A stretch of DNA of 64,000 nt from Sedimentisphaerales bacterium (GTDB taxonomy: Bacteria; Planctomycetota; Phycisphaerae; Sedimentisphaerales; UBA12454), in contig JBEKRK010000003.1 in assembly GCA_049518795.1 (NCBI GenBank), positions 99,854 to 163,853 on the forward strand. The letters are read 5' to 3'. Every line of letters starts with the position of its first letter. The first letter of the stretch is position 1. The notes beneath the pieces were generated by a model, which was not told where the DNA came from, made no database searches, and saw only the letters and a program-made list of their open reading frames with translations. Positions 4,687-42,108 of this stretch are shown piece after piece. A program made the translations under genes and the position numbers.

Positions 4687-5302
4687 TTATTTTCCTGGCA
4701 TATTTACGCCAGTTTGCCGAACCGTTCTGAACAAAATAATCGAATGATACATCGCCGGCAAGTTCACCCAAAAGCGTTTTGCGTTCGGTTGCGTCCGACA
4801 CTTCTTCCATAATGTATTTTCGGATTGTTTCAAGCTCAGTCAGAAATTCGCCGTGCTTTTCGGTGAAGATGCCTTCGAGTTTTTGCCTGATATGTCCCGC
4901 ATAAGCCGGGCTGTATCCTTCAGTGCCGATTGCTATCTGTAGGTCGCCGCGTTTGACAACGGCCGGAACAAAAAAATCGCAAAGCTCAGGGTCATCCGCC
5001 ACGTTGCATAGCACCTCAAGCTGCTGGCAGTCTTTGTAAATCTGCTCATTTAGTTCTTCATCATTTGTCGCGGCAAAGGCAATTGCTGCGCCGGCGAGAT
5101 AGTCTTTTGAATATTTTGCCTCGACAAATTCAGTATCCGTATTTTTACATCTGGTTTTCAGGACCTCGTCAATCTGGTCGGCGACAACAACAACACGGGC
5201 CTGTGCGTCCAGGAGGCTCAATATTTTTCTTGCGGCGACGGAGCCTCCGCCGATGACTACTGCGCGTTTTGATTTCAGATTTAAAAAGATGGGGTATTTC
5301 AT
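4643..5302 (-). CDS. Precorrin-2 dehydrogenase / sirohydrochlorin ferrochelatase (SirC / CysG N-terminal domain type)
   Basis: PIFLNLKSKRAVVIGGGSVAARKILSLL shows the Rossmann motif of siroheme synthase N-domains. I moved the start to MKYPIF (5302); the ORF track extends to 5341. Confidence 0.8.
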   Translation of the reverse strand: MKYPIFLNLKSKRAVVIGGGSVAARKILSLLDAQARVVVVADQIDEVLKTRCKNTDTEFVEAKYSKDYLAGAAIAFAATNDEELNEQIYKDCQQLEVLCNVADDPELCDFFVPAVVKRGDLQIAIGTEGYSPAYAGHIRQKLEGIFTEKHGEFLTELETIRKYIMEEVSDATERKTLLGELAGDVSFDYFVQNGSANWRKYARKIIESPAATNINDQKD

Positions 5303-5413
5303 AGCGATGTATATAATAGCACTTTTCGGGCCTTGCAGCAACCAATTTTGATGTGCAAAAGACGCTTTTTTGTGTAAAATACGCTTATTAAGTTGATTTT
5401 ACCGGAAAATATT

Positions 5414-5947
5414 ATGAAGAAAATAATAACTCCTTTGACTGATGAAGTAATTCGCTCTCTTAAAGCCGGCGACGAAGTATCCATAAGCGGCGTCGTTTAC
5501 ACGGCACGCGATGCGGCGCATAAAAGACTTTGCGAACTTATTGAAAAAAAAGAAAAATTGCCGATACCTATTGAAGGTCAGATTTTTTATTTTGTTGGTC
5601 CCACGCCTGCCCGGCCGGGAAAGGTAATTGGTTCGGCAGGACCGACGACATCGGCAAGAATGGATAATTTCTCGCCCGTTCTTTTATCCGCAGGACTGAA
5701 GGGAATGATTGGCAAAGGCTATCGCTCCGATGCTGTAAAAGATGCGCTGAAAAAATATTGTGCGGTTCATTTTGCCGCGCTCGGCGGGGCAGGGGCGCTT
5801 TTAAGCCAATATATAATATCCGCACAAGTCGTCGCGTATGAGGATTTAGGCACGGAAGCCATAAGGAAACTCCAAATCAAAGATTTCCCGGCTGTTGTAG
5901 CTTATGATTCTTTCGGAAACAGCGTTTATAAGAAAGTTGGCCAATGA
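5414..5947 (+). CDS. Fe-S hydro-lyase beta subunit (class I fumarate hydratase / tartrate dehydratase beta type)
   Basis: ISGVVYTARDAAHKRL...FYFVGPTPARPGKVIGSAGPTTSARMD matches the FumA C-terminal/TtdB family pattern. I moved the start to MKKIITPL. Confidence 0.75.
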   Translation: MKKIITPLTDEVIRSLKAGDEVSISGVVYTARDAAHKRLCELIEKKEKLPIPIEGQIFYFVGPTPARPGKVIGSAGPTTSARMDNFSPVLLSAGLKGMIGKGYRSDAVKDALKKYCAVHFAALGGAGALLSQYIISAQVVAYEDLGTEAIRKLQIKDFPAVVAYDSFGNSVYKKVGQ

Positions 5948-6999
5948 AAGCGGCATTTCTCGGAATAATCGGTTCAGGCAAAAGCACATTGCTCGCAGCA
6001 GTCAGCGGCAAAAAGCTAAGTCATACCGGAGCGGCGCAGATTGAAGAAATAATTACCCCTGTGCCGGATGAAAGACTCGACTGGCTTTTTAACCACTATA
6101 AACCAAAAAAGAAAGTCAACGCAATGATAGATTGTCTTGATTTGCCGGGTCTGTCTTTTGCAGACGACCATACCAGAACTGCTGCAAAAAGACTGCTTGA
6201 CCAGGTGCGGACAAGCGAGCTTCTTGTGCTGGTTATAAGAGCGTTCGACACTGCCGGCATGAAAGCGGAGCCTTTAAAAGAGCTTTCGGATTTAATGACC
6301 GAATTGCTTCTTGCAGACCTTGGGCTTGTTGAGACACGAATTGACAAGCTCCAGAAACAGCTTCATAAGCCGACAAAAGATGTAGCAAAACAAAAAGAAG
6401 AACTATCGCTTCATTTAAAGTTAAAACAGACTATCGAATCTGAAAAACCATTAAAGACGGCAATCACAACTCCACAGGAGCTTGAACTTATAAAGCCGCT
6501 CGGCTTTCTGACGTTAAAACCGGTAGTTGTCGTTTTTAATACTGCGGAAAGTAATCCCGCGCAAGCCTTTGATACCGCCGGCATTATTGATTCGTCGATA
6601 CCGGTAATTTCTATCTGTGCGGAGATTGAATATGAGATAAGTCAGCTTGACGAGGCGAGCAAAGCGGAGTTTATGGAGGATTTAGGTCTGACTGAATCTG
6701 CTGCGAATAAATTTGTCCGAAGCTGTTATTCTTCACTTGGCCTGATTAACTTTTTCACAGTCGGCGATGACGAGACACGGGCCTGGCCGATAAAAGTCGG
6801 CACAACAGCGGTTGAAGCGGCAGGTAAAGTTCACAGTGATATAGCGCGCGGTTTTATACGAGCCGAGACGATGCACTTTGAGGATTTGAAAAGAATAGGC
6901 GACGAAAAAGCGGTTAAGGCCGCCGGCAAAATGCACCTTGAAGGCAAAAGCTACATCGTTCAGGACGGCGACATAATATGTTTCAGGTTTAATGTTTAA
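5944..6999 (+). CDS. ychF: YchF-like ribosome-binding ATPase/GTPase
   Basis: The P-loop is GIIGSGKSTLLAAVSG. The C-terminal TGS-like end KSYIVQDGDIICFRFNV is characteristic of YchF. An ATGA overlap links it to the upstream gene. Confidence 0.7.
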   Translation: MKAAFLGIIGSGKSTLLAAVSGKKLSHTGAAQIEEIITPVPDERLDWLFNHYKPKKKVNAMIDCLDLPGLSFADDHTRTAAKRLLDQVRTSELLVLVIRAFDTAGMKAEPLKELSDLMTELLLADLGLVETRIDKLQKQLHKPTKDVAKQKEELSLHLKLKQTIESEKPLKTAITTPQELELIKPLGFLTLKPVVVVFNTAESNPAQAFDTAGIIDSSIPVISICAEIEYEISQLDEASKAEFMEDLGLTESAANKFVRSCYSSLGLINFFTVGDDETRAWPIKVGTTAVEAAGKVHSDIARGFIRAETMHFEDLKRIGDEKAVKAAGKMHLEGKSYIVQDGDIICFRFNV

Positions 7000-7011
7000 G
7001 ATTAGTTTTAT

Positions 7012-8046
7012 ATGAAAGCATTAGCTTTAACAGGATTGAACCATCTCGAATTTATCGATGTTCCGGAGCCTCAGATAAAAAACGATACGGATGTGCTGCT
7101 TAAGCTCGCCGCTGCCGGGGTATGCGGCAGCGATGTCCATTATTACCAAACCGGCAGAGTAGGCGCACAGGTTGTTACTTTCCCCTATCGTATCGGACAC
7201 GAATGTTCCGCGATAGTTGCTCAAATCGGCAAAGCCGTCAAAAATGTAAAAGTCGGCGATAAAGTCGTAGTTGAACCTGCTGTCTCCTGTCATAATTGCG
7301 ACCAGTGCAATTTGGGCAGGGAAAATACCTGCCCAAATTTGAAATTTCTCGGCACTCCCGGCCAGGCCGACGGCTGCTTTTGCCAGTATATGGTTATGCC
7401 GCAGGAAAACTGCCTTGTAGTCGGCGATAAACTTACGCTTATTCAGGCCGCATTGTGCGAGCCTTTTACCATAGGCTTATATGCCGTAAAACAGGGACAA
7501 ACCTCTCATAATGATAAAATCGCGATTCTCGGCTCAGGGTCGATAGGTTTAAGCTGTATGATTGCGGCCAGGATAAAAGGTGCCGGTAAAATTTATATGA
7601 CCGATAAACTCGATTATCGTCTTGCTGTCGCTAAAAAATACGGTGCAGACTGGACAGGCAATCCCGACAAAAACGATATTGTCAGCCAGATTTGCAAAAT
7701 TGAATCTGGCGGAGTTGATGCGGTTTACGAATGCGCAGGAAAGCAGAGCACTATTGACGAGGCAATTGAAATTTTGCGTCCCGGCGGGAAACTCGTCCTT
7801 GTCGGTATCCCGCGGGAGGATAGAATTTCTTTCAGTATTGATAAAATCCGTAGGAAGGAAATTACGATTATAAATATCCGCAGGCAAAACCGGACTACTA
7901 AAGATTCGATTGAACTCCTCACGGCAAAAAAAGTGAATATTGATTTTTTAGTTACTCACAAATTTAAGTTTGCCGATTCGATAAAAGCTTTTGAAATTGT
8001 CGCCGGCTACAAAGACGGCGTCCTAAAAGCAATGATTGAATTTTGA
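7012..8046 (+). CDS. Zinc-dependent alcohol/polyol dehydrogenase (MDR family)
   Basis: It has the catalytic Zn motif GVCGSDVHYY...GHECSA, the structural Zn Cys cluster CHNCDQCNLGRENTC and the Rossmann motif ILGSGSIG. Confidence 0.85.
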   Translation: MKALALTGLNHLEFIDVPEPQIKNDTDVLLKLAAAGVCGSDVHYYQTGRVGAQVVTFPYRIGHECSAIVAQIGKAVKNVKVGDKVVVEPAVSCHNCDQCNLGRENTCPNLKFLGTPGQADGCFCQYMVMPQENCLVVGDKLTLIQAALCEPFTIGLYAVKQGQTSHNDKIAILGSGSIGLSCMIAARIKGAGKIYMTDKLDYRLAVAKKYGADWTGNPDKNDIVSQICKIESGGVDAVYECAGKQSTIDEAIEILRPGGKLVLVGIPREDRISFSIDKIRRKEITIINIRRQNRTTKDSIELLTAKKVNIDFLVTHKFKFADSIKAFEIVAGYKDGVLKAMIEF

Positions 8047-8049
8047 TAT

Positions 8050-9291
8050 ATGTCAAATGCTGCGATAATAAGTGTTGGAAACGAGCTTTTAAACGGCAAT
8101 ACTGTTGATACAAACAGTAACTGGCTTTGCAGCAGGCTGATTTCTGAATCAATCCCTGTTGTTTACAGTTGTGCCATTACTGATGATATTGAGGAGATTA
8201 AAAACGCCATTAAATACGCATCTGCCAAAGCGGATATCATTTTAATTACCGGCGGTTTAGGCCCAACGGATGATGATCTGACGAGAGATGGAATTGCGAA
8301 ATTTCTTGGTGTTGGACTTGAATATAAGCCGGAAATTTTTGAAAAAATTAAAAAGTTCTTTGCCGTCAGAAATTATCCGATGCCGGAAAGAAACAAAATT
8401 CAGGCATATTTTCCTGTGGGCACAAGCGAAATTGAAAATGATCTCGGCACCGCGCCGGGAATATTTTACAAGGATGGCAAAAAAATAATCGCATCGTTCC
8501 CTGGCGTGCCTTCTGAAATGAAACTTATGTTTGATAAGTCTGTTTTACCGAGGCTGAAAAAATTTGCAAGGGGTGACGTTTTAGTTGCAAGAAAAGTCAG
8601 ATGTGTCGGAGCCGGCGAATCAGCGATAGCTGAAATGCTCGGCGATTTAATGAGACGCGACCGTAATCCTCTGATTAACTGCACCGTGGCCGCTGGGATT
8701 ATTACTCTGCATATTATCGCACGGGCAAAGGACAAAGAAAAAGCTGCTGCATTAGCCCAGGATGATATTCAAAGGCTTCAAGGCATTCTCGGCAAACTTG
8801 TTTATGGGCTGGACGAGCAAAGTCTGGCTGAAGTTGTCGGTCAAAAACTCATAGAGGAAAACAGAACTCTCGTTGTAGCTGAATCCTGCACCGGCGGTCT
8901 AATCTCCAAAATAATTACCGATATTGCCGGTTCGAGCAGATATTTTCTCAACGGCTGGGTTACGTATAGCAATGAGTCTAAAGTATCAGAAATTGGCGTG
9001 CAAAAAGAATTGATTGAAAAATTCGGTGCGGTCAGCGGCGAGGTTGCAAAGGCAATGGCAATGGGAGCAAAGAGAAAAAGCGGCGCAGATTTCGCAATAG
9101 CCGTTACGGGAATAGCTGGCCCCGACGGCGGAACTGAACAAAAACCTGTTGGCTTGGTATATATTTCTGTAGCATACCCGGATGGTGCAATTGCGGAGAA
9201 ATTTTTATTTGGCACAAGGGATAGAGATTTTATCAGACTTAGAGCTTCACAAAATGCCCTTAATTTGCTTAGATTAAGGTTGGGTATTTGA
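8050..9291 (+). CDS. cinA: CinA family protein (MoCF-binding domain + nicotinamide-nucleotide amidase PncC domain)
   Basis: IISVGNELLNGNTVDTNSNWL at the N-terminus and ESCTGGLISKIITDIAGSS...VTGIAGPDGG at the C-terminus are both typical CinA signatures. Confidence 0.9.
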   Translation: MSNAAIISVGNELLNGNTVDTNSNWLCSRLISESIPVVYSCAITDDIEEIKNAIKYASAKADIILITGGLGPTDDDLTRDGIAKFLGVGLEYKPEIFEKIKKFFAVRNYPMPERNKIQAYFPVGTSEIENDLGTAPGIFYKDGKKIIASFPGVPSEMKLMFDKSVLPRLKKFARGDVLVARKVRCVGAGESAIAEMLGDLMRRDRNPLINCTVAAGIITLHIIARAKDKEKAAALAQDDIQRLQGILGKLVYGLDEQSLAEVVGQKLIEENRTLVVAESCTGGLISKIITDIAGSSRYFLNGWVTYSNESKVSEIGVQKELIEKFGAVSGEVAKAMAMGAKRKSGADFAIAVTGIAGPDGGTEQKPVGLVYISVAYPDGAIAEKFLFGTRDRDFIRLRASQNALNLLRLRLGI

Positions 9292-18077: not shown

Positions 18078-19070
18078 ATGAAGACCGAAACAAATAATAG
18101 CCGCAAAGACTCTGAATCGCTAAGAACAAGAAGTAATAATTTTAAAACTTCGTGTCTTGGTGTCTTAGTGGCTAAAAAGGGGTTCACTCTCGCCGAGCTT
18201 ATTACCGTAGTCGTGATAATCGCAATTCTGCTGGGGATTTTAATGCCGGCCCTGTCGCAGGTAAAAAAAATAGCGCTTGAAGCCAAACAAAAGGCCCAGA
18301 TTACCAGCATCGAAGTCGGCATAAATATGTATAGAAACGACTTCGGTGCATACCCGCCGTCTCACGGCACGCAGACGGCTACTGAGTCGGTTTACTACTA
18401 CTGCGGCGCCCAGACCCTTACAGAAGCTATGTTCGGCTGGGATTTGCTGGGTGTTCACCAGAACTCAATCTTCAGGGCGGATGGACAAGACAACTCAGGC
18501 AATAATCTTTATCCTCCAGGCCCTAATTCGACAGAACTCAATGCCAGAAAAGAGCCTTATCTTGACAGGACGAATATCGGCGTTTTTACGCCTCGCCAGA
18601 TTTTTAATCAAACCTCTTTTCCAGCTTTTCCCGGCGGTTTGGATGCGGACAGGTATGTTATTTGTGATGTTTTTTCTGCTGCAAGCAGAGAAATCAACGG
18701 AAAATCTTATAAGGTCGGCACACCCGTCCTCTATTTTCAGGCAAACCTTGCTCCTGTAAATACACAAGGGCTTATAATTGCTTCTGCACCGCCTGATAAT
18801 AAGAACAATATTTATAACTATATGGATAATAATTTTCTTATAGAACTGGGAAAAATGACTAACACAACAACAGCTCATCCGCTTTATACGCCTCCCCCTT
18901 ATACAGGTGAACCATTTTATAAATATATTGTTGACCCAATGATTCCTGCAGCGTCCGGAACTGTCGGAATGCCTGTTCGAAAAGATACGTTTCTTTTGAT
19001 TTCAGCGGGCTTCGATGGCCTATACGGCACAAAAGATGATATATGTAATTTTAATCCGAATGTACAGTAA
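18078..19070 (+). CDS. Prepilin-type pseudopilin, enlarged GspG-family paralog 2
   Basis: It has VAKKG|FTLAELITVVVIIAILL and SAGFDGLYGTKDDICNF. The likely true start is GTG 18168 inside a repeat element, giving the short leader MAKKG. ATG 18078 would give an atypical 35-aa leader. Confidence 0.75.
   Translation: MKTETNNSRKDSESLRTRSNNFKTSCLGVLVAKKGFTLAELITVVVIIAILLGILMPALSQVKKIALEAKQKAQITSIEVGINMYRNDFGAYPPSHGTQTATESVYYYCGAQTLTEAMFGWDLLGVHQNSIFRADGQDNSGNNLYPPGPNSTELNARKEPYLDRTNIGVFTPRQIFNQTSFPAFPGGLDADRYVICDVFSAASREINGKSYKVGTPVLYFQANLAPVNTQGLIIASAPPDNKNNIYNYMDNNFLIELGKMTNTTTAHPLYTPPPYTGEPFYKYIVDPMIPAASGTVGMPVRKDTFLLISAGFDGLYGTKDDICNFNPNVQ
18148..18175. repeat. Family A right-arm half copy overlapping the 5' end of a pseudopilin gene
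   Basis: The sequence is cttcgtgtcttggtgtcttagtggctaa. GTG at 18168 is in frame with the prepilin motif. Confidence 0.8.
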
Positions 19071-20927: not shown

Positions 20928-20945
20928 AATTAAAATAAAAATTTT

Positions 20946-20973
20946 CTTTGTGTCTTGGTGTCTTAGTGGCTAA
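20946..20973. repeat. Family A right-arm half copy containing the start codon of the gspI-like gene
   Basis: The sequence is ctttgtgtcttggtgtcttagtggctaa, with TTG at 20948 and GTG at 20966. Confidence 0.8.
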
Positions 20974-21667
20974 GAAATTTAAACAAAGCGGTTTTTCTCT
21001 TACCGAGGTCTTGATGGCCGCAGGCATTCTTTCTATCGGTATGATGCTGGTAGCCACGATGTTTCCGGTCGCGATTTACCTGACAAGCATATCGGTCGAA
21101 AGGACAATGGCCGCTATTGTTGCTGATGAAGCATTCGCGAAAATTCAGCTTTACGGCATTGGCACGCCTATTCTCAATATCGGCGATTATAACGATATCC
21201 CCGGCCTGACAATTGACCCCTGCGAATTTTCGTATAATCCGACACAAGCTCTAACAAATCCCCAATATTACTGGTCAGCCGTTTACAGAAAATTGAGCCC
21301 GGTGGACCCGAATTATCAGATGACGGTCTTTGTCGCCAGAAAAACAAATCCGGGACTGACGTATCCCAACCCTGGCGGTCCGTCTTATGATAGACCAAAA
21401 CTTATTATGATTCAGAGTATAGTGCAACCTGATCCGAATTTCCTGGTCGTTACGGTTTATCCGCAATATGTTAATCCGCCGACAGCGATACTCGATAATG
21501 CTACCGGTAAAATATACCGCGTTATTGACAGGCAGAATACTAAGGTGAAACTTGACAGAGGCTGGGAAGATTCGACCGGCCCAGCTAATATTTGGCTTAT
21601 TCCTCCGCCCGTAACCGGCGGACGAAATGCGGATATCGAAGTTTATCAGAGAATAATAAGATTTTAA
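20948..21667 (+). CDS. Minor pseudopilin (GspI/PilV-like by position)
   Basis: It has KQSG|FSLTEVLMAAGILSIG. There is no in-frame ATG upstream. The start must be TTG 20948 or GTG 20966, and both lie inside a repeat element. Confidence 0.65.
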   Translation: MCLGVLVAKKFKQSGFSLTEVLMAAGILSIGMMLVATMFPVAIYLTSISVERTMAAIVADEAFAKIQLYGIGTPILNIGDYNDIPGLTIDPCEFSYNPTQALTNPQYYWSAVYRKLSPVDPNYQMTVFVARKTNPGLTYPNPGGPSYDRPKLIMIQSIVQPDPNFLVVTVYPQYVNPPTAILDNATGKIYRVIDRQNTKVKLDRGWEDSTGPANIWLIPPPVTGGRNADIEVYQRIIRF

Positions 21668-25195: not shown

Positions 25196-25294
25196 CCACG
25201 AAGGCACAAAGACACGAAATATATAATTAAAAAACTTAGTGCCTTGGCTTGTCCCGCCATAGCCTTTTGGCGACGGCGGATGTCTTAGTGGCTA
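25193..25294. repeat. Family A element, full copy, filling the whole spacer between two convergent genes; both terminal TAGs are the stop codons
   Basis: The left arm spans 25193-25218. The right arm (25235-25247 plus 25281-25295) is interrupted by a 33-nt insert. TAG at 25193 ends the gspK-like gene. The reverse complement of CTA at 25292-25294 ends the minus-strand gene. Confidence 0.85.
25248..25280. mobile_element. 33-nt family Q mini-element precisely inserted into a family A arm
   Basis: Removing cttgtcccgccatagccttttggcgacggcgga restores cttagtgccttggtgtcttagtggctaa. That sequence is identical to the right arm at 21717-21744. Related copies lie at 19237-19266 and 41354-41386 (reverse complement), with shorter forms at 32983-33008 and 33063-33082. 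Confidence 0.6.
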
Positions 25295-32373: not shown

Positions 32374-32982
32374 GTGACAAAATTTTACTTACCAATTCCA
32401 ATCCCGAAAATTATCGAAACCATCTTCGTTTATTTCCTTCTGCGATACAGGAAGAAAACCCACGGCTATCCGTTCCGCAAAATTAAACTCACAAAAGGTA
32501 AGTTCGCAAAAGTTGACCCGGAAGATTATCACAAATTAGCCCAATACGATTGGCACCTTGAAGAAAGCAAAAACAGAAAAAATTGCTATGCTGTCCAATA
32601 CGAAGACAGCAGATACGTGAAAATGCACAGAGTTATTATGAACGCTCCTGCCGGCAAAATCGTTGACCATATAAACGGCGATGGCCTCGATAATACTAAA
32701 CGCAATTTGCGAATCGCTACCTATGCTCAAAACTCTTATAATAAAAGACTAAAAAAGAAAGGCACCTCAAAATACAAAGGTGTATATTTTTATAAACAAA
32801 CGAATAAATGGGCATCGCATATAAATTATAATAATAAGAGATTACATTTAGGTTATTTTGATAACGAACAAGACGCCGCAAGGGCTTACGACAATGCCGC
32901 GAAAATTTATCACGGCGACTTTGCAGTGCTTAATTTTCCCGATGACTCGCAAATCCAAAACTATTTAGCCCCTCGGCCTTAA
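32374..32982 (+). CDS. HNH endonuclease + AP2 DNA-binding domain protein (homing-endonuclease-like)
   Basis: MHRVIMNAPAGKIVDHINGDGLDNTKRNLR is the HNH_3 pattern. YKGVYFYKQTNKWASHINYNNKRLHLGYFDNEQDAARAYDNAAKIYHGDFAVLNF is AP2. It has a GTG start and a hydrophobic N-terminus. Confidence 0.7.
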   Translation: MTKFYLPIPIPKIIETIFVYFLLRYRKKTHGYPFRKIKLTKGKFAKVDPEDYHKLAQYDWHLEESKNRKNCYAVQYEDSRYVKMHRVIMNAPAGKIVDHINGDGLDNTKRNLRIATYAQNSYNKRLKKKGTSKYKGVYFYKQTNKWASHINYNNKRLHLGYFDNEQDAARAYDNAAKIYHGDFAVLNFPDDSQIQNYLAPRP

Positions 32983-33279
32983 TCCGACGAAGCTTTAGCG
33001 AAGGCGGATGCCGAGAGGTTCGTTTATTGTGCGGGGTTCGTCAAAATCCTAAAGCCCCCAAGCTTGTCCGCCTTCGGCGGATTTATATTGGGGGTTCTCT
33101 CCACTAAAAGACCGCCTTATAAGAATATCGGTTTTTTCGGAGAAAATTGGTTGAGTTTGAAAAGAAGTTTCCTTCGACCCTGCTCAGGATGAACCATTGA
33201 CAAAGAGATAAGAATGGTAGAAAATGGGGGAAATTTATCTGGAAAAAATCGCAAAAACGTTAAGAATTAATAAAGAACA

Positions 33280-34188
33280 ATGATAGCAACCAGAGAAAAG
33301 CAGATTATAGCTAAACCATTTCTCAAATGGGCTGGAGGGAAAACACAGCTTCTTGATGAAATTGAAAAACGCTTACCTAATGGTCTTTCGACAGGAGAGA
33401 TTACAACTTATATTGAACCTTTTGTTGGCGGAGGAGCTGCATTTTTTTATATTGCACAAAATTACACAAAAATAAAAAAGTTTTATCTTTACGACATTAA
33501 TAACGACCTTGTTAATTGTTATAAGACGGTTCAAACGGATGTTAACTCTCTTATCAAGTCTCTTGGGAAACTAGAAGCGGAATTTTTGCCATTAAATCAC
33601 AATGATAGAAAAAAGTTTTATTTGAAAATCCGCAAAGAATTTAATCAGGATAAATGCGAAAATCATAATCCTGAAACTATGGCTAAATTGATCTTTTTAA
33701 ATAAAACCTGTTTCAATGGGCTTTACAGGGTAAACAGCAAAAACGAGTTTAACGTTCCTTTCGGTGATTATAAAAATCCTAAAATTTGTGACGGAAAGAA
33801 TTTGTTGGCCGTTTCGGAAGTCCTGCAAAAGGCCGAAATAATTTGCGGAGATTTTACAAAAAGCAGGAAAAATATAAGTAAAAATTCTTTTATTTATTTA
33901 GACCCGCCATACAGACCACTGAATGGCACGGCGAGTTTTACCGCATATTCGAAGGACAGCTTTTCTGAAGAAGACCAGATTAGACTGGCAGAATTTTGCA
34001 AAGAAATTAAACAAATTGGAGCAAAATTTCTTTTAAGCAATTCCGATCCTAAAAATGAAAATCCAGAAGACCATTTCTTTGAAGACAATTTCAGAGGCTT
34101 CGATATTCAAAAAGTAAAGGCAAGTAGAGTTATTAACTGCAAGGCAGTTGGGCGAGGTCAAATTAGTGAACTTCTAATTACGAATTGA
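33280..34188 (+). CDS. Dam-type N6-adenine DNA methyltransferase (probable GATC)
   Basis: It has PFLKWAGGKTQLL, EPFVGGGA and the catalytic YLDPPYRP. The region is AT-rich. Confidence 0.9.
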   Translation: MIATREKQIIAKPFLKWAGGKTQLLDEIEKRLPNGLSTGEITTYIEPFVGGGAAFFYIAQNYTKIKKFYLYDINNDLVNCYKTVQTDVNSLIKSLGKLEAEFLPLNHNDRKKFYLKIRKEFNQDKCENHNPETMAKLIFLNKTCFNGLYRVNSKNEFNVPFGDYKNPKICDGKNLLAVSEVLQKAEIICGDFTKSRKNISKNSFIYLDPPYRPLNGTASFTAYSKDSFSEEDQIRLAEFCKEIKQIGAKFLLSNSDPKNENPEDHFFEDNFRGFDIQKVKASRVINCKAVGRGQISELLITN

Positions 34189-34207
34189 ACGGAGTGTTTT
34201 TGTAAGC

Positions 34208-34831
34208 ATGAAAAGACAGGAAGCAGTCAAGAGGATTCAAAAACTTATTGGGCAAGACTTGCGAAAGTTGGCAGATACATACGAAGTTACGGTTTTTCGC
34301 AATGGCAAAAAAAATAAAGGATGGGCGGGTCATGTAATAGAGAGATGTTTAGGGTTGCCGATCAATTCCTCACAATCACCCAATTTTGGGTCTTGGGAAC
34401 TAAAAACTATTCCACTAAAATACTTAAAAAATGGAGAACTAACAGTAAAAGAAACAATGGCAATCACGATGATTGACCCATACAACGTAGAGCATACTGA
34501 ATTTGAAAACAGTCATTTGTTGGCGAAACTAAAAAAGGCTGTTGTTGCGGCTCGTATCTGGATTAGTCAGAAAGAAGAAAGTTCTGTTTTATATAAAGTA
34601 ACAACATTTGATTTGGACAACAGAGAGCTCTATGAACAGATAAAAGAGGATTATAATACTGTTCGTGATGCAATAATAAATAAAGGATTTAAGTCTTTGA
34701 CCGGTAAAATGGGAGTATATGTTCAACCTCGGACAAAGGGAGCAGGTCATGGAAGCACATCTCGGGCGTTTTATGCTAGGACCGGTTTCCTTAAAAAATT
34801 TATATTTCCAGAGTTTCACATATCCAAATGA
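34208..34831 (+). CDS. MutH/Sau3AI-family restriction endonuclease (probable GATC)
   Basis: KGWAGHVIERCLGLPINSSQSPNFGSWELKTIPLK aligns by eye with E. coli MutH [36 protein letters not shown]. The C-terminal YVQPRTKGAG...FYARTGFLKKF aligns with MutH YLQIRPKAAN...FYLKKNF. Confidence 0.8.
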   Translation: MKRQEAVKRIQKLIGQDLRKLADTYEVTVFRNGKKNKGWAGHVIERCLGLPINSSQSPNFGSWELKTIPLKYLKNGELTVKETMAITMIDPYNVEHTEFENSHLLAKLKKAVVAARIWISQKEESSVLYKVTTFDLDNRELYEQIKEDYNTVRDAIINKGFKSLTGKMGVYVQPRTKGAGHGSTSRAFYARTGFLKKFIFPEFHISK

Positions 34832-35613
34832 GCAAAACTAAAAGCATAGAGTATTCACCAGAGTTTACCACAGTCTGGTCTTTCCCAGAAAGAGGAAACT
34901 GGGCGACTCATAATCCGCAGTACCGCGGGAATTTTGCACCGCAGATTGCAAGAAATATCATCGAAATGTACTCAAAAAGAGGCGAAACAGTCCTTGATCC
35001 TATGGTCGGCGGCGGAACAACCATTATCGAAGCCAAGTTGCTTGTCAGGAATGCAATAGGTCTTGATATAAACCCGAAAGCGATAGAAGTAACGAAACAG
35101 GCATTAAAATTCAATCATCATCCAGCAAGCAAACAGATTGTCAAAACTGGTGATGCAAGAGATTTATCTTTTATCAAAGGCGACAGTATCGATTTAATTC
35201 TTACACATCCACCCTATATGAATATTATCAAATATTCGGACGGTCAATTTCACGGCGACCTGTCAAATATCGGCAGTATGCCAATATTCTGCGATGAAAT
35301 CGAAAAAATAGCAAAAGAACTTCATAGAGTTCTAAAACCTGATAAATATTGTGCAATACTCATAGGTGATACACGTAAGAGCAGGCATTTTGTGCCGTTA
35401 GCATATAATGTTATGCAGCGGTTTTTAAAAGTTGGTTTTATTTTAAAAGAAGATGTAGTTAAAGTTCAGCATAATTGCTCATCTACAGGCCGATGGGCGC
35501 AAAAAGCACAGAATGATAAATTTTATCTTATTATGCACGAACATTTATTTGTTTTTCGCAAGGCGAAAAAAGATGAAAATTTAGGAAAAATAAAATATTC
35601 AAGTAAAATATAA
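34828..35613 (+). CDS. Second DNA methyltransferase (N6A/N4C class, THPPY motif)
   Basis: It has the SAM motif VLDPMVGGGTTIIEA and the catalytic LILTHPPYMN. An ATGA overlap links it to the nuclease gene. Confidence 0.75.
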   Translation: MSKTKSIEYSPEFTTVWSFPERGNWATHNPQYRGNFAPQIARNIIEMYSKRGETVLDPMVGGGTTIIEAKLLVRNAIGLDINPKAIEVTKQALKFNHHPASKQIVKTGDARDLSFIKGDSIDLILTHPPYMNIIKYSDGQFHGDLSNIGSMPIFCDEIEKIAKELHRVLKPDKYCAILIGDTRKSRHFVPLAYNVMQRFLKVGFILKEDVVKVQHNCSSTGRWAQKAQNDKFYLIMHEHLFVFRKAKKDENLGKIKYSSKI

Positions 35614-35722: not shown

Positions 35723-37084
35723 ATGAGAATATCGGTTGAAGAGGTTTTTGAGACGGTAAGGATGACCATCGAACAGAATTTCGATATCAGGACTGTTACG
35801 CTCGGCGTCAATCTTAAAGACTGTGTCGACAGGAACCTTGCCGCTTTTAACAAAAGAATATTCAAACGGATTTCGGAGATGGGCAAACGTCTCAATAAAT
35901 GTGCAGACCAGCTCGAACAAAAATACGGCATACCCATTACCAACAGGCGAATAAGTGTAACGCCGGTTGCGCTGCTTATCGAGCCGCTGCCGAGAAAAAT
36001 CGCGACAGCCGTATCAGTTGCCAAAACGCTCGACAAGGCCGCGAGGTCGGCGAAAATCGACTTTATCGGCGGCTTCGGCGCGCTTGTTCATAAAGGTATG
36101 ACCGCTGCGGATGAGCTTTTGATAGATTCTATTCCGCAGGCCATATCGCAGACGCAAAGATTGTGTAGTTTTTTAAATCTCGCTTCGAGCAGGGCGGGTA
36201 TGAATATGACAGCCATTGAAAAGGTTGGTCATATCATTAAGGCTCTTGCCGCGAAAAGTAAAAATGGTATCGGCTGCGCCAAGCTTGCCGTTTTTGCCAA
36301 TGTGCCGGAGGACAATCCTTTTATGGCTGGCGCCCATCACGGGATTGGCGAGGCGGATTTTTCATTGAATATCGGAATTTCAGGCCCCGGCGTAGTCAGG
36401 AATGTGGTTGCCAATAATCCGAAATGTGATTTGACGGCTTTGTCGGAGGTCATAAAGAGGACTGTTTTTAAGATTACGCGGGCAGGCGAGCTTATTGGCA
36501 GGGAGATTGCGAAGATGATGGATGTTGATTTTGGCATTGTTGATATTTCGCTTGCTTCGACGCCGAAAAGAGGAGATTCCGTAGCTGAAATTATTGAAGC
36601 TATGGGTGTTTCGCGGATGGGCAGGCCGGGTTCTACTGCGGCTTTAGCGATGTTGATGGACGCAGTAAAAAAAGGCGGCGGTTTTGCCTCTGGCAATGTA
36701 GGCGGATTATCGGGGACGTTTATTCCGGTAAGTGAAGATGCAGGGATGATTCGTGCAGTGCGGACGGGAGCGCTTAGTCTCGAAAAGCTCGAAGCCCTGA
36801 CCAGCGTTTGCTCCGTCGGTCTTGATATGTTTGCGATTCCCGGCGACACGCCAGCAGACGTTATTAGCGCAATAATAGCAGATGAACTTGCAATCGGAGT
36901 CGTTAATAATAAGACAACCAGCGTGCGCGTTATACCAATTCCGGGCAAAAAAGCGGGGCAAATTGTCCACTTCGGAGGCCTTTTAGGGTCGGCACCAATT
37001 ATGAAAATCCCGAAAAAAGCATCACCAAATTTCGTAAAACGCAAAGGTCGAATACCAGCACAAATACAGGCATTGAGAAATTAA
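35723..37084 (+). CDS. UPF0210 (DUF711, PFL-like) family protein
   Basis: VFETVRMTIEQNFDIRTVTLGVNLKDC is the characteristic UPF0210 N-terminus. It is 453 aa with core-like GC content. Confidence 0.85.
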   Translation: MRISVEEVFETVRMTIEQNFDIRTVTLGVNLKDCVDRNLAAFNKRIFKRISEMGKRLNKCADQLEQKYGIPITNRRISVTPVALLIEPLPRKIATAVSVAKTLDKAARSAKIDFIGGFGALVHKGMTAADELLIDSIPQAISQTQRLCSFLNLASSRAGMNMTAIEKVGHIIKALAAKSKNGIGCAKLAVFANVPEDNPFMAGAHHGIGEADFSLNIGISGPGVVRNVVANNPKCDLTALSEVIKRTVFKITRAGELIGREIAKMMDVDFGIVDISLASTPKRGDSVAEIIEAMGVSRMGRPGSTAALAMLMDAVKKGGGFASGNVGGLSGTFIPVSEDAGMIRAVRTGALSLEKLEALTSVCSVGLDMFAIPGDTPADVISAIIADELAIGVVNNKTTSVRVIPIPGKKAGQIVHFGGLLGSAPIMKIPKKASPNFVKRKGRIPAQIQALRN

Positions 37085-37153
37085 ATTTTAGGGTACAGAA
37101 TGTAGGGTATAGTATGACTGTCGCAGAGGCGACTAAATAGTGACGAGTAATTT

Positions 37154-37732
37154 ATGTGGAATATTTTTGAATATCCGTTTGCCGGGATTGGGGCGGCGAT
37201 TATCGTTTTTATCGCCTTGTGGATTTTCCGAGCGGTTTGCCCCGATAAAAAACGCTGGTGGCAACTATTTATACCACTTCTAATAGTTATCGCTGCCGTC
37301 GCGGTCGCGTATTTTGTCGAAACCGATAAAGAAAAAATCCAAGGTGCAATAAACAAAGGAATCAAGGCTTTCGAACAACAAAAAATCGAGCCTATAAAAG
37401 AAATTGTCGCTGACGATTATACAGACCCATACCACAGCTCAAAAGACATAATCATCGCATACTGCCAGGCCCTCTTCCAAACGGCAACCGTCGAAAAAAT
37501 AAGCATATTCAGCCGACAAATTGAAATCCAGGACGATAAAGCGACTTTTACAGTTGAAGGACTTGTAAAATTTACCGAACAAAGCGAAATTGCAAAGATG
37601 GGCAAGCCGTTTATGATTGTCAAGGCGAGATTTTATTTCCGTAAGACCATTCAAAAAAAATGGTTAATAAACAGCAGCGAAATTCTGGAGCTTGACAGAC
37701 AAGCAGTAAACTGGGGGCAAATGCGCAATTAA
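37154..37732 (+). CDS. Two-TM membrane protein with small soluble C-terminal domain, unknown function
   Basis: It has two N-terminal hydrophobic helices. No family was recognised. Confidence 0.45.
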   Translation: MWNIFEYPFAGIGAAIIVFIALWIFRAVCPDKKRWWQLFIPLLIVIAAVAVAYFVETDKEKIQGAINKGIKAFEQQKIEPIKEIVADDYTDPYHSSKDIIIAYCQALFQTATVEKISIFSRQIEIQDDKATFTVEGLVKFTEQSEIAKMGKPFMIVKARFYFRKTIQKKWLINSSEILELDRQAVNWGQMRN

Positions 37733-37737
37733 AATTC

Positions 37738-37765
37738 TTAGCCACTAAGACACGAAGACACAAAG
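37738..37765. repeat. Family A left-arm half copy
   Basis: The sequence is ttagccactaagacacgaagacacaaag. Its TAG (37739-37741) lies in frame two codons after the TAA of the 37154 gene. Confidence 0.75.
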
Positions 37766-38076
37766 AAAAGAAGTAAGGAGATAAGGAGGCAGGGAAGTGA
37801 GGATATGTGTTATGGTGTGGGTATCGGTAACGTCACGATATCGGTAAAGGTAAAAATAGTTAAACGGTTTTAACGAACCCTGCCAAGGTATTGGCAGGGC
37901 TAACCCCCCGCCCACGGGTGGCAGGGCTAAACAGAACCATAAAATTTTATTGTTGAGTTTGAAAAGAAAAAGAGTAGAATTTTAGTAAAGCAACGAGGAG
38001 TTGCAACATAGAGACTGTAATAAAAAATAGATGATTACCTCTACCTATATTCAAAAAGAAAGAGAATAATACTGCC

Positions 38077-39690
38077 ATGATTAAAAAAATATTTATTCAA
38101 AACTATAAAATCTTTGATCGCTTCGATCTAGAGTTGAATAGTGACTTAAATATCGTTGTTGGTGATAATGAAGTTGGGAAATCAACTATTCTTGAGGCCA
38201 TCAATCTTGCCTTGACAAAAAGACTTAATGGAAAATCGATTGAGTATGAAATAACACCCTATCTGTTTAATAAAATATGTGCTAATGAATGGCTCAAGTC
38301 TATAAAAGATAGTAAGCCAATAGAATTGCCGGAAATTATTATTGAACTTTATCTAGAGGATGTCCCTAAATTGGCATCATTACGAGGAAGAATGAACTCA
38401 AAAAGGGAAGATTGTATTGGCGTGAAATTAGAAATTGTATTCGATGAAGATTATACGGAAGACTATCAAACCCTGATCGCAGACCCGTCTAAAGTACAAT
38501 TAATTCCTGCAGAATTTTATAAGGTTCAATGGTATTCTTTTGCTAATAATGCAATTTCTATAAGAGGTTTACCCATTCGCTTATCGTATATTGACGCTAC
38601 GACAATACGATTGCAAAGTGGTACGGATTATTATCTTCAAGATATTATTAAAACTGATCTCGACGCAAAAGAACGAGTGGGGCTCAACATTGCCTATAGG
38701 GAGTTGAAAGAACATTTTTCTAAGGAAGCTTCTATTAAGGGGATCAATGACAGACTACAAACCAAGAAGGGTGCTATTACAAATAAGAATCTTTCTATCT
38801 CAATTGATATCTCTCAGAGGTCAAATTGGGAGACAAACCTTGTGCCTCACCTGGATGATTTACCTTTTCAGCTTATTGGCAAAGGAGAACAAAATGCTCT
38901 TAAAATAATGCTTGCGCTAGAACGTAAAGGTGTTGAGTCAAATATCATTCTTATTGAAGAGCCAGAAAATCATTTGTCATTTTCTTCAATGAACACGCTG
39001 ATTTCAAAAATTAAAGATAAATGTGCGGGAAAGCAAATAATTATTGCGACTCACAGTACTTATGTACTTAACAAGCTAGGGCTTGAGAGTCTGATTCTAC
39101 TTCACGATAATGAAAAAGATAAAAAGATTGAGACGGCATCTTTAAGAAACCTTCCAGATGATACGCAGGATTATTTCAGAAAGTTGTCTGGTTATGATAC
39201 GTTAAGGCTTGTTCTCGCGAAAAAAGCTATTTTGGTTGAGGGGCCATCAGATGAGCTTGTTGTGCAGAAAGTATATTCACAGAAACACAAAAAGCTCCCC
39301 ATTGAAAAAGGGATAGATGTAATAAATGTCCGAGGATTATCATTTTCTAGATTTCTAGATATTGCAAAGGAATTGAAAAATAATGTGGTTGTAGTAACTG
39401 ATAACGATGGTGATTATGCAAATAAAGTTGATGCAAAATATAAGGACTATAAAAGCCTTGCGAATATCAAAATTTGTCGGTCAGAAGATAATTCGGCACC
39501 AACGCTTGAGCCGCAACTTGTAAAGTGCAACGAATTAAAGGTTTTAAATAAGATTTTAGATAAAAATTTTACGGATAAAGGAACAATAAAAGATTATATG
39601 GAAAAGAACAAAACAGAATGTGCTTTGAAAATTTTTGAAACTAAAGAAAACATTTTATTTCCTAGTTATCTCGAAGATGCAATTAAGTAA
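38077..39690 (+). CDS. OLD-family ATP-dependent nuclease (ABC-type ATPase + Toprim), GajA-like
   Basis: It has Walker A VVGDNEVGKSTILEAI, the signature-like IGKGEQNALKIMLAL and Walker B IILIEEPENHLS. The Toprim segments are AILVEGPSDELVVQ and VVVVTDNDGD. The region is AT-rich. Confidence 0.8.
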   Translation: MIKKIFIQNYKIFDRFDLELNSDLNIVVGDNEVGKSTILEAINLALTKRLNGKSIEYEITPYLFNKICANEWLKSIKDSKPIELPEIIIELYLEDVPKLASLRGRMNSKREDCIGVKLEIVFDEDYTEDYQTLIADPSKVQLIPAEFYKVQWYSFANNAISIRGLPIRLSYIDATTIRLQSGTDYYLQDIIKTDLDAKERVGLNIAYRELKEHFSKEASIKGINDRLQTKKGAITNKNLSISIDISQRSNWETNLVPHLDDLPFQLIGKGEQNALKIMLALERKGVESNIILIEEPENHLSFSSMNTLISKIKDKCAGKQIIIATHSTYVLNKLGLESLILLHDNEKDKKIETASLRNLPDDTQDYFRKLSGYDTLRLVLAKKAILVEGPSDELVVQKVYSQKHKKLPIEKGIDVINVRGLSFSRFLDIAKELKNNVVVVTDNDGDYANKVDAKYKDYKSLANIKICRSEDNSAPTLEPQLVKCNELKVLNKILDKNFTDKGTIKDYMEKNKTECALKIFETKENILFPSYLEDAIK

Positions 39691-40732
39691 AAACAAAATA
39701 ATTATAGCCTGTGCTGGTTCTGGCAAGACAACTTATATTGTTGAAGAAGCTTTAAAGTTGAAAGACAAAAAAGTTTTAGTTATAACTTATACAAATGAAA
39801 ATTTGGATCAGATTAGATCGTTTTTTATTGATAAATCTGGATACATTCCGGCAAACATAACTGTTCAGTCATGGTTTAGTTGTTTATTGCAAGAAGGCGT
39901 AAGACCATATCAAAACTACAAAACAGAAAGAAAACGGATTCGGTCAATTTACTATTTTAAAAAAGAAGATGCTGAATTAATAAAAAAATTGAGATATATA
40001 AAAGAAGAAAATGATAGTCATTATCTGACAAAGAATAATTATTTATATGAAGATAAAGTGTCTCAGTTTTTTTATAAGTGTAATGAATTATCCAAAGGTT
40101 TAGTTTTAAAAAGGTTGGGAAAAATTTATGATTATTTATTTATAGATGAGGCGCAAGATTTGGAAGGTTGGGATTATGATTTAATTGGCAATTTATTTGA
40201 TTCTTCACTATCTATTGTTTTAGTAGGTGACCCAAGACAGAAAATATTGAAAACTCATCGACATTTAAAAAACAAAGGATTTGATACGGTTTTCGATTGG
40301 TTAGATAAAAAAAAGAAGAATAATTATATTTGTGAGATAAATAATGCATCATTCAGATGCAATCAATGCATATGCGATTTTGCTGACAAGTTATTCCCTC
40401 ATTTGCCAAAAACGGTTTCTAAAAATTTGAGCATAACAGGACACGATGGGATTTTTTACATTTTAGATAATGAAATAGATATCTATATGAAAACGCACCA
40501 TCCAGTAATTCTTAGGTACAACAAAAAAGCGGACACCTTGGATTTTTCTGGAATTAATATTGGGATAGCTAAAGGAAGAACTTATGACAGAGTTTTAATT
40601 TTTCCTACAAATCCAATGCTTGAGTATTTAAAAACGAAAGATATATCAAAAGCTGGTGATAAGTTTAAGCTATATGTTGCTATTACGAGAGCAAGATATA
40701 GTGTGGCTTTTGTTGTAAGCGAAAATATCTGA
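39677..40732 (+). CDS. Compact UvrD-like SF1 helicase (351 aa), GajB-like
   Basis: It has IIIACAGSGKTT (motif I), VITYTN (Ia), FIDEAQDL (II), LVGDPRQK (III) and YVAITRARYSV (VI). The ATG at 39677 overlaps the upstream gene by 14 nt. Confidence 0.75.
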   Translation: MQLSKNKIIIACAGSGKTTYIVEEALKLKDKKVLVITYTNENLDQIRSFFIDKSGYIPANITVQSWFSCLLQEGVRPYQNYKTERKRIRSIYYFKKEDAELIKKLRYIKEENDSHYLTKNNYLYEDKVSQFFYKCNELSKGLVLKRLGKIYDYLFIDEAQDLEGWDYDLIGNLFDSSLSIVLVGDPRQKILKTHRHLKNKGFDTVFDWLDKKKKNNYICEINNASFRCNQCICDFADKLFPHLPKTVSKNLSITGHDGIFYILDNEIDIYMKTHHPVILRYNKKADTLDFSGINIGIAKGRTYDRVLIFPTNPMLEYLKTKDISKAGDKFKLYVAITRARYSVAFVVSENI

Positions 40733-40748
40733 TTAAGAGATTTTGGAT

Positions 40749-41312
40749 ATGCCAGATAGAGACGTTAAGACAATTAAGGATTTAATCTTTTATCAATACG
40801 CCAAGATTATTGCGCGCAGGGCATTTTCTGCGGCGGATGGGAAAGAGGCGAAGAAATATAATTACGGGTTTGTGAAAAATACGTTTCGGGAACTGCAAAG
40901 CGGGGTCAAACAGTGGTCGGAAATAACGCGGGAGGACTGGCAACTTGTCGAGGCAGAGAAAAAATGCGCTTACTGCGGCAGTTCGGAAAATATAGTCAAA
41001 GAACATATTGTGCCAAAGTCTTTGAGAATAAAGCCGGAGTGTGAAAGCTGCGATACGATACAGGGGATACATAATCAGGTGTGGGCGTGCGGCAACTGCA
41101 ATAGTTTGAAAAAAACAAAAGGATTATATGAGTTTTTCAAAGGGAAATACCCGAATGAAAAGAAATTCTACGATATGATACCGACATTGTTAGAGAAGAA
41201 ATACCTTAAGACGATATTTAACTGCCACCAGTGCGCTGAAACACTCGATAAAGGCAATTTGAAAGACGAGGAAATTAACGTGCTCGATATTGATTTTATT
41301 CTTCATGGTTAG
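40749..41312 (+). CDS. HNH nuclease (third gene of the OLD/UvrD module)
   Basis: It has CAYCGSSENIVKEHIVPKS and VWACGNCNSLKKTKG (HNH with Cys pairs). It starts 17 nt after the helicase gene, on the same strand and with the same AT-rich composition. Confidence 0.75.
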   Translation: MPDRDVKTIKDLIFYQYAKIIARRAFSAADGKEAKKYNYGFVKNTFRELQSGVKQWSEITREDWQLVEAEKKCAYCGSSENIVKEHIVPKSLRIKPECESCDTIQGIHNQVWACGNCNSLKKTKGLYEFFKGKYPNEKKFYDMIPTLLEKKYLKTIFNCHQCAETLDKGNLKDEEINVLDIDFILHG

Positions 41313-41400
41313 GAACCCTCAATCCCCGACCGGAGAACAATAACCCCATAACATCCGCCTTCGCCAAAAGGCTTCGTCGAGACAAGTAAAGTTAGGGGCT

Positions 41401-42108
41401 TTAGGATTTCATCAGGTTGTTGAAATAAGACGGGGTTTGGGATTCAAAGGTCATTAGTTTGCCGGTGGCTGGGTGCTTAAAAGAAATAGACCTGGCGTGA
41501 AGGGCAAGTCTTTTTAGGCCATCGTCAGCATTTCCATATTTTCTGTCGCCTGCAAGAGGATGGCATAAATCAGCAAAATGGACTCTTATCTGATTCTTCC
41601 TGCCGGTAAGAAGATTAACCTCTATCAGACTAAAATGCTTTGTCTCCTTTAGAACCTTGTAAGCGGTATGCGAGAGTTTGCCTTTGGCGGGGTCTTTCGT
41701 GGAATAAACAACAAAAGCTTTGTTCTCGGCCAAGTAAGAGGAAATAATTCCTTCTTTCTGCGATAGGCGGCCGTGGACTACAGCAATATATTTTTTTTGA
41801 ATATCCTTCCACTGCTCCTGCAGGCGCATTTTAATTTCCTCGCTTTTTGCGAAGATAAGAACGCCGGAAGTCCACTGGTCAAGCCTGTGAACTATAAAAA
41901 TTCTGTTTTTGGATTTCGGATTGCCTTTCCTGACATAATCGGTGAGGATGTAATAAGCAGTTTTTGTCTTGTTTGTTTCGGTGCCGACGGTTAATAAGCC
42001 TGCGGGTTTATCGACGACGATAATATCATCATCTTCATAAAGAATTTCCAGATTTCTGGGCAACTTGCGGTAATTTAAGTGTTTTTTATGAGCCATAATC
42101 CTATACAT
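41401..42108 (-). CDS. RluA-family pseudouridine synthase
   Basis: DDIIVVDKPAGLL and the catalytic HRLDQWTSGVLIFAKS are present. Confidence 0.9.
   Translation of the reverse strand: MYRIMAHKKHLNYRKLPRNLEILYEDDDIIVVDKPAGLLTVGTETNKTKTAYYILTDYVRKGNPKSKNRIFIVHRLDQWTSGVLIFAKSEEIKMRLQEQWKDIQKKYIAVVHGRLSQKEGIISSYLAENKAFVVYSTKDPAKGKLSHTAYKVLKETKHFSLIEVNLLTGRKNQIRVHFADLCHPLAGDRKYGNADDGLKRLALHARSISFKHPATGKLMTFESQTPSYFNNLMKS

Follow-up and report, generated by a model that had tools for sequence, protein, structure and literature searches.

A compact Gabija defence pair followed by a free-standing HNH nuclease gene lies at positions 38,077 to 41,312 of a 64,000-nucleotide stretch (the window) of contig JBEKRK010000003.1 from a Sedimentisphaerales bacterium. 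An earlier note on this DNA, made from its letters and open reading frames (ORFs), had taken the three genes for one module, possibly a distinct defence-system variant in which the HNH protein acts as an additional or alternative effector. Our data argue for a different arrangement. By every operational criterion tested on sequences or models, the first two genes are a Gabija system of a compact clade, and the comparative sequence data indicate that the HNH protein is neither an obligate third Gabija subunit nor specific to Gabija. It therefore seems probable to us, though well short of certain, that cargo swapping brought a known compact Gabija pair to its position before a promiscuous, autonomous HNH gene. 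The locus comprises the following features:

38077-39690, + strand: gajA (gene 1), OLD-family nuclease of 537 aa from the compact clade, ABC-type ATPase fused to Toprim
39677-40732, + strand: gajB (gene 2), short SF1A UvrD-like helicase of 351 aa, overlapping gajA by 14 nt
40749-41312, + strand: HNH gene (gene 3), free-standing HNH (beta-beta-alpha-Me) endonuclease of 187 aa with an ATG start
37952-37996, + strand: sigma-70-like promoter element, 97 nt 5' of gajA, putative promoter of gajA-gajB-HNH
37878-37899, no strand assigned: palindromic hairpin CCCTGCCA-N6-TGGCAGGG, left border of the module

An ORF check of the sequence confirmed the three co-directional reading frames of the earlier note as well as the 14-nt overlap between the first two (start at 39677, end at 39690), whereas the gap between the gajB stop and the HNH ATG is 16 nt and not 17 nt. 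For gajB we used the ATG at 39677, from which homologues and profiles align (MQLSKNK), and not the TTG at 39635 at which the mechanical ORF begins; the HNH gene starts at ATG 40749, and all of its homologues begin with MPDRDV. The motifs quoted for genes 1 and 2 are all present at the expected places. In GajA these are the Walker A motif GDNEVGKST (29-37), the Walker B/D-loop IILIEEPENH (290-299) and the Toprim motifs LVEGPSDE (386-393, Glu 388) and TDNDGD (441-446, DxD at 442-444), and in GajB the Walker A motif (12-19), DEAQD (157-161), VGDPRQ (183-188) and YVAITRAR (333-340). Gene 3 is likewise the 187-aa HNH protein with Cys pairs that had been described, having four CxxC pairs together with H86, N109 and N118.

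For the assignment of Gabija we relied on the operational definition of Doron 2018, PADLOC and DefenseFinder, and found the GajA domains, an adjacent co-directional SF1 helicase gene, full-length profile matches and conservation of the pair in relatives. GajA covers the PADLOC profile PDLC00102 (E 1.6e-210) with residues 1-537 on positions 2-530 of 532, and GajB covers PDLC00148 (E 5.6e-113) with residues 4-349 on positions 1-355 of 369; neither match could plausibly arise by chance. Pfam detects AAA_15, AAA_21 and OLD-like_TOPRIM in the former and UvrD-helicase and AAA_19 in the latter. Among 80 metagenome loci whose GajB is 44-65% identical, 74 have room upstream, and in 72 of these GajA ends where GajB begins. 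With full-length matches for both proteins and a pair kept in nearly all relatives, the former description as a “Gabija-like core” was, if anything, too cautious. The clade is large, and its GajB proteins typically have about 340-380 aa. Homologues of GajB are numerous (1809; 314-379 aa among the 120 matches listed), and one of them, in a Sedimentisphaerales metagenome-assembled genome (MAG), is 100% identical. Since the clade already has its own PADLOC profile, the short helicase is no oddity of this locus.

The Gabija prototype of Bacillus cereus VD045 shares the layout, an OLD ABC-ATPase/Toprim gene directly followed by an overlapping gene for an SF1A UvrD-like helicase, but its GajB has 494 aa, whereas the GajB of the window has 351 aa with the 2B region missing and 1B shortened. 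The AlphaFold2 model of the latter (pLDDT 92) matches PcrA, UvrD and Rep (TMq 0.6-0.73) and also B. cereus GajB (8tk1_F). Anchored on Rep, it has about 200 aa fewer between motifs III and VI, the position of the 2B domain, and the stretch from motif Ia to II (1B region) is about 50 aa shorter and still helical at residues 66-150 of the model. Both accessory inserts had been thought to be missing; the 2B domain is indeed absent, whereas 1B is shortened but retained.

GajA is compact as well. Class 2 OLDs carry an extra helical insert in the Toprim domain, owing to which they are about 50 aa longer than class 1 OLDs (PMC10568477); BpOLD, XccOLD and BcGajA form the structurally characterised reference set. 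Because the Toprim residues E388 and D442 are 54 aa apart, compared with 132 aa in BcGajA (E379, D511; PMC8136825), this insert appears, by residue spacing, to be absent from the GajA of the window. The best match among solved structures is the class 1 OLD of Thermus scotoductus (6p74, E 2.6e-11), which is also similar in length (528 versus 537 aa) and in its short Toprim domain. In contrast to class 1 OLDs, among them P2 Old, which are encoded by single genes, the clade of the window GajA has a conserved helicase partner, which is the defining trait of class 2/Gabija (PMC10568477). A PDB sequence search with GajB as a single sequence gave no match, nor did phmmer against the BcGajA and BcGajB chains at E 1e-3. 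Anti-phage protection, the GajA4-GajB4 complex and nucleotide-regulated DNA cleavage are established for B. cereus-type Gabija alone (PMC10781630, PMC8136825). By homology with B. cereus GajAB, GajA and GajB of the window would form a complex in which the Toprim nuclease of GajA is restrained by nucleotides and cuts DNA once nucleotide levels fall or DNA ends become accessible upon infection. Such a transfer by homology has to be read with the reservation that the compact clade is without parts of both characterised proteins.

The evidence on the third gene comes mainly from synteny. On the HNH side we used one genome per species and the best 80 of 144 loci (52-93% HNH identity), and on the Gabija side the best 80 of 334 metagenome loci; ORFs were taken from a simple caller of our own and taxon labels from the MAG records, and loci are referred to by L numbers. 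None of the 80 HNH-bearing species-level genomes carries a homologue of the window GajA or GajB nearby, the one weak OLD-like match near an HNH gene being a solo Old. From the opposite side, 63 of the GajAB-clade loci extend 650 nt or more beyond gajB, and 0 of them has a gene of this HNH family; the sole exception among all 80 is L094, a short contig with HNH 56 nt after gajB. No HNH accompanies the closest GajB relatives that were looked up, at 75%, 72% and 67% identity; what follows gajB on their contigs is a DUF433/DUF5615 pair, small ORFs and a DUF2779 gene. As the 66 downstream neighbours of related gajB genes split into 53 clusters, the compact GajAB clade has no conserved third gene.

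These findings bear directly on the idea of a dedicated three-gene Gabija variant, in which GajA, GajB and HNH would have co-evolved with HNH as extra or alternative effector. Tight packing of the genes (14-nt overlap, 16-nt gap) and the second mini-Gabija with HNH in L094 are in its favour. We nevertheless regard it as highly improbable, because the synteny is absent from both the HNH and the GajAB side, the base composition breaks at the gajB/HNH junction, the relatives of the window HNH sit in other contexts, and L094 and the window are not nearest relatives by GajB. The GajB of L094 is 57% identical to that of the window and 68-70% identical to GajBs without HNH, and the window GajB has relatives without HNH at up to 75% identity. 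Since the L094 protein is closer to HNH-free GajBs than to that of the window, the two Gabija-HNH junctions are best read as independent. Only two junctions other than that of the window were found at all, L094 and L069. In L069, HNH stands behind a different, full-size Gabija (PDLC00077, E 1.4e-232; PDLC00118, E 2.5e-134) and is a pseudogene, cut after residue 121 by an internal deletion. The proposal that HNH is the third component of a distinct variant thus fails the test of synteny, and a literature search returned no report of Gabija with an HNH third gene or of an HNH-marked defence module or hotspot.

What precedes the HNH gene elsewhere is remarkably diverse. The closest relative of the window HNH with known context (85% aa identity) follows Pkinase and SLFN_AlbA_2 genes, and every OLD- or Gabija-linked HNH has its nearest relative in a different context. 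The HNH of L069, for instance, shares 93% identity with another copy from its own Pirellulales MAG (L003), which lies behind a PDC-S28 helicase. When all ORFs were clustered, no neighbour family occurred in more than 9 loci, which leaves no single conserved HNH partner, and no Pfam family matches more than 4 of the 85 genes that are adjacent and co-directional to HNH. A co-directional upstream gene lies within 250 nt of 46 of the 73 HNH genes, often within 40 nt, and about one third have no such neighbour within 250 nt. Among the tightly coupled upstream genes are those for SLFN_AlbA_2, SEC-C, solo Old, an SMC/LmuB-like ATPase, a HEPN-like protein and HsdR, and likewise those for ORF6N within type I restriction-modification (RM) operons, HGD-D and an ABC transporter. 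Grouped by type, the cargo before HNH comprises Old, Gabija, Schlafen-like, DUF4238, helicase and type I RM genes. The operons that end in HNH are thus unrelated to each other and for the most part serve defence, and other family members stand alone.

Such a pattern could also arise if HNH were a modular nuclease that works with any upstream sensor, especially ABC/SMC-type ATPases (GajA, Old, LmuB/PtuA-like). The logic would be that of PtuA-PtuB in Septu; the trio would then work as a three-part system with an HNH that is common to many systems. The frequent co-directional upstream genes (46 of 73) would fit, as would partners such as Old (L007, L010, L015), Gabija (window, L094, L069) and the SMC/LmuB-like ATPase of L034, a shared promoter that implies one transcript, and the weak similarity of HNH to PtuB. 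However, many partners are self-sufficient (type I RM, Gabija) or housekeeping genes (HGD-D, ABC transporter), roughly a third of the HNH genes are without a co-directional upstream gene, 63 related GajAB pairs do without HNH, and the three Old cases are homologous and possibly go back to one event. In addition, HNH has decayed both in L069 (after Gabija) and in L034 (after the SMC-like ATPase) with the upstream genes intact. We therefore consider a modular effector of this kind possible but rather unlikely.

Base composition separates the HNH gene from the pair in front of it. The locus had been described as an AT-rich block of three genes, which is correct for gajA and gajB (33.6% and 29.0% GC; 28.6% and 23.6% GC at third codon positions, GC3), but gene 3 is host-like, with 41.0% GC in a window of 42.9% and a GC3 of 49.5% next to 45-50% in flanking housekeeping genes. 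At the gajB/HNH junction GC3 consequently jumps from 24-29% to 50%. The same break, with AT-rich cargo (GC3 24-37%) and an HNH gene that is not (50-63%), was seen in 7 of the 8 other loci checked, L007 being the exception, and hence it is a recurrent property. Across 67 loci the GC content of HNH follows that of the host (r = 0.8). Homology between HNH copies at the DNA level is restricted to the ORF, plus or minus a few to 156 nt; relative to L001 and L002 (91-92%), it begins at the ATG and stops at the stop codon.

The left side of the module is conserved as well. Upstream of gajA lies a 45-nt element (GTTGAGTTTGAAAAGAAAAAGAGTAGAATTTT...) of the form TTGAGT-N16-TAGAAT with a conserved spacer and about 15 conserved nt downstream. 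The promoter scan places it at 37953-37980, and its pattern has a single occurrence in the window (0 expected). Near-identical 45-nt copies head L165/L166 (Pkinase, SLFN_AlbA_2 and HNH) and L013 (a 308-aa gene and HNH), and in 1.65 Mb of loci the full element was found by nhmmer and Hamming scan only at the heads of HNH-terminated operons. It is likely, judging from these sequences, the promoter of a gajA-gajB-HNH transcript. Because of the 16-nt gap and since no terminator was found, the HNH gene is probably co-transcribed with gajAB. The palindrome of the hairpin is likewise present a single time in the window, where shuffles give an expectation of 0; it is found again 258 nt 5' of the Old-HNH module of L007 and about 130 nt 3' of HNH in L167-L172, and may either terminate the upstream gene or mark a border.

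An insertion is seen in L015 (Planctomycetes bacterium RBG_13_46_10), which is syntenic with the window at 3.8-15 kb. Here, a 3.7-kb block of Old, an 80-aa gene and HNH (5081-8767) stands between genes whose counterparts in the window (7012-9291) have just 3 nt between them, and for this reason modules including HNH can be said to behave as insertions. The window itself represents the “empty site” with respect to this insertion.

Against this background, a plain coincidence, with a resident HNH gene beside which Gabija was inserted by chance in a defence island and a promoter that is merely typical of the lineage, appears improbable to us. It would agree with an HNH GC content that tracks the host and with a second occurrence, at 33150-33166, of the initial 17 nt of the promoter element, there upstream of an HNH-free RM operon. 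It agrees poorly with the restriction of the full 45-nt element to HNH-terminated operons, with the abrupt junction between AT-rich cargo and HNH in 7/8 other loci, and with the insertion of the L015 module, including HNH, as a block.

Taken together, the shared promoter and HNH, the GC3 breaks, the variety of contexts and the L015 insertion make cargo replacement inside an HNH-terminated mobile module the most likely history of the locus. In this scenario, gajAB would be AT-rich foreign cargo between a conserved promoter element and a host-like HNH gene, and Gabija would have reached its place before HNH by homologous recombination, with the promoter and the HNH gene as the shared sequences. 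HNH itself would most likely be an autonomous, Zn-stabilised HNH DNA nuclease, independent of GajAB. It could be an independent defence nuclease, which might be type IV restriction-like, or a selfish gene resembling a homing endonuclease. A related but doubtful possibility, to which we assign only a minor share, is that promoter element and HNH form a mobile “frame” or docking platform for the exchange of AT-rich defence cargo, which would range from Gabija, Old, Schlafen-like and DUF4238 genes to helicases and unknown 300-aa proteins, with HNH either promoting exchange or homing, or serving as common effector.

Several points weigh against cargo swapping before an autonomous HNH. In Planctomycetota, OLD-family cargo precedes HNH in six loci (window, L094, L069, L007, L010, L015), about one third of the scorable modules of this phylum, and with the SMC-type ATPase of L034 the count is seven, again about one third; by our guess, the OLD-family share lies above the rate that the abundance of Gabija and Old would give. 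On the + strand, no promoter of its own and no terminator is recognisable before HNH, which makes co-expression and cooperation with gajAB plausible. Recombination, promoter activity and the DNA substrate of HNH are predictions read from sequence, the synteny scans cover the best 80 of 144 genome loci and the best 80 of 334 metagenome loci, and we know of no member of the compact Gabija clade that has been experimentally tested for defence. The HNH family recurrently follows defence operons including those of OLD type, so that the adjacency of gajAB and HNH is not simple chance, and some functional link between them is conceivable.

The HNH protein is a well-conserved nuclease candidate. Its CxxC pairs are C73/76, C98/101, C114/117 and C159/162. 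In 121 homologues, C73, C76, H86, N109, C117 and N118 are invariant and C114 nearly so; within the complete set of eight cysteines, H86, N109 and N118, three cysteines are nearly invariant and the rest invariant. The AlphaFold2 model (pLDDT 84) has strands at 82-86 and 110-114 and a helix at 115-121, so that sequence and model together provide the catalytic His, the structural Asn, the metal-binding Asn or His, the CxxC zinc ligands on either side and the beta-beta-alpha fold of the HNH nuclease superfamily. Two PHROG HNH endonuclease families match (E 9e-8 and 8e-7). The window protein has no Pfam match above cutoff; some of its homologues are annotated with PF14279, and some sources label homologues McrA. 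Foldseek with the model found only Cas9 HNH domains and a Geobacter nicking HNH, all weak (probability 0.94, E 0.015), and no solved counterpart of the N-terminal helical bundle, and a PDB search with the HNH profile returned a single marginal HNH match.

The family has 763 homologues (67-91% identity among the matches listed), which by source name stem from Planctomycetota, Omnitrophota, Nitrospirota, Zixibacteria and Rosettibacter; the genome loci widen the range to Bacteroidota, Spirochaetota, Elusimicrobiota and archaea. It is often multi-copy within one genome. Since dN/dS (nonsynonymous over synonymous substitution rates) is 0.07-0.14, paralogues within one genome included, the copies are working proteins. 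With two weak matches in phage records and another two in plasmid records, the family is essentially absent from both.

At its C-terminus (41262-41309, residues ~172-187) the protein carries a conserved GDxDGDGEISVLDIDFILH motif, which we take to resemble a calcium loop of the EF-hand/dockerin type. Its closest relatives (92-93% aa identity) are encoded in L001 and L002 of one Phycisphaerae MAG. Both contigs start 156 nt 5' of HNH, and these stretches (1-156 in each) are 98.7% identical, which suggests that a repeated sequence 5' of HNH broke the assembly.

Among known systems, Septu (PtuA and PtuB) and the PtuAB of retron Ec78 resemble the locus in having an ABC-type ATPase gene 5' of a small HNH gene. 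In contrast to Septu, the ATPase of the window carries Toprim and is GajA, and the HNH family has no conserved ATPase partner. The “Septu-like” label once given to gene 3 is accordingly weak: its best PtuB match (PDLC00340, E 1.2e-7, 29.5 bits) covers the HNH core only, with residues 44-124 on positions 39-113 of 268, and the window ATPase reaches just 43 bits with NCBIfam PtuA, whose cutoff is 500, in a match confined to the P-loop. With a PtuB match limited to the core and GajA as ATPase, membership in Septu was rejected.

A “type II Gabija” is another non-canonical Gabija architecture with changed nuclease content; it consists of GajB and GajC (Liu-DS1), and a MazF-like GajC replaces GajA (NAR 2026, PMC13069673). 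It is no match for the locus, which keeps GajA and has an HNH as extra gene. The END nucleases are unrelated, being PLD proteins with inactive EndoIII (PMC12191111).

The closest parallels to the HNH gene may be sought elsewhere. Small nuclease genes also occur as free-standing homing-type HNH genes, and “guest” genes such as prrC are found in type I RM operons. The window HNH resembles these as a small autonomous nuclease gene with ORF-limited homology and several copies, and its family shares with them the co-directional insertion between or behind genes, including between hsdM and hsdS. Unlike them, the family is nearly absent from phage records, very conserved, and tracks the host in GC content. 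An integron gene cassette was also considered and rejected, as the 16-nt gap between gajB and HNH leaves no room for attC, although no formal attC model was run. No mobile-element signature was found around the locus: the window has no tRNA gene, Pfam detected no integrase among the ten flanking genes scanned, and Rfam had no match in 37000-42000.

The locus is hence a two-gene Gabija of a compact, structurally uncharacterised clade and not a new Gabija subtype with a second nuclease. The 1809 GajB homologues suggest that a 2B-less GajB is widespread, together with a GajA that apparently has no class 2 Toprim insert, and the clade would serve as a minimal model of how Gabija works. A more useful lead is offered by the HNH family: conserved and multi-copy, it flags the 3' end of small AT-rich defence modules that are exchangeable, and the promoter element is common to at least three of these. 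If this bookend pattern is true, HNH could be used as an anchor or marker to find new defence genes by guilt-by-association in Planctomycetota and beyond, and it raises the question of how cargo is swapped and whether the nuclease gene takes part.

Some further observations concern the modules in other genomes. L069 (3639-4506 and 7923-8450) and L003 (1120-1905 and 4607-5248) share short DNA blocks (87-90%) 5' of different cargo, which gives the impression of conservation on either side of the cargo. In L167-L172, L008 (196-1242) and L013 (5597-6628), a DUF4238 protein with 87-88% identity between loci recurs 5' of HNH modules, with different genes between it and HNH (304 aa; 78, 144 and 191 aa; 308 aa), and may be a second conserved bookend. 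In L046 (1029-4651), L048 (6117-9742) and L067 (5511-9781) from Treponema, Spirochaetota and Bacteroidota, HNH is embedded between hsdM-like and hsdS-like genes, where it follows a small protein, which in L048 has an ORF6N domain, and its start codon and the neighbouring stop codons overlap. A 38-nt block of 92% identity with a ribosome-binding site and a mini-ORF of 2-3 codons is common to L005 (~985-1022) and L015 (~5750-5787), where it precedes different cargo (SLFN_AlbA_2 and Old, respectively) in operons that both end with HNH.

Within the window, the initial 17 nt of the promoter element (GTTGAGTTTGAAAAGAA) recur without mismatch at 33150-33166, about 115 nt 5' of an RM operon. This operon forms a second AT-rich block (33280-35613, GC 34-37%) of type II RM-like genes, encoding a D12 (Dam-like) methyltransferase, a MutH/Sau3AI-like endonuclease and an N6_N4 methyltransferase, with no HNH of the family at its end. 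Just 5' of it (32374-32982), a 202-aa protein combines HNH_3 with AP2, as free-standing homing endonucleases typically do; it has no relationship with the 187-aa HNH family. A sequence of about 35 nt after the stop of a 192-aa gene (37735-37769) is repeated in inverted orientation between genes at 20942-20976 and 18148-18178 (97% and 90%) and is probably a small dispersed repeat. Finally, a 36-nt match links 41351-41386 with 25248-25283.

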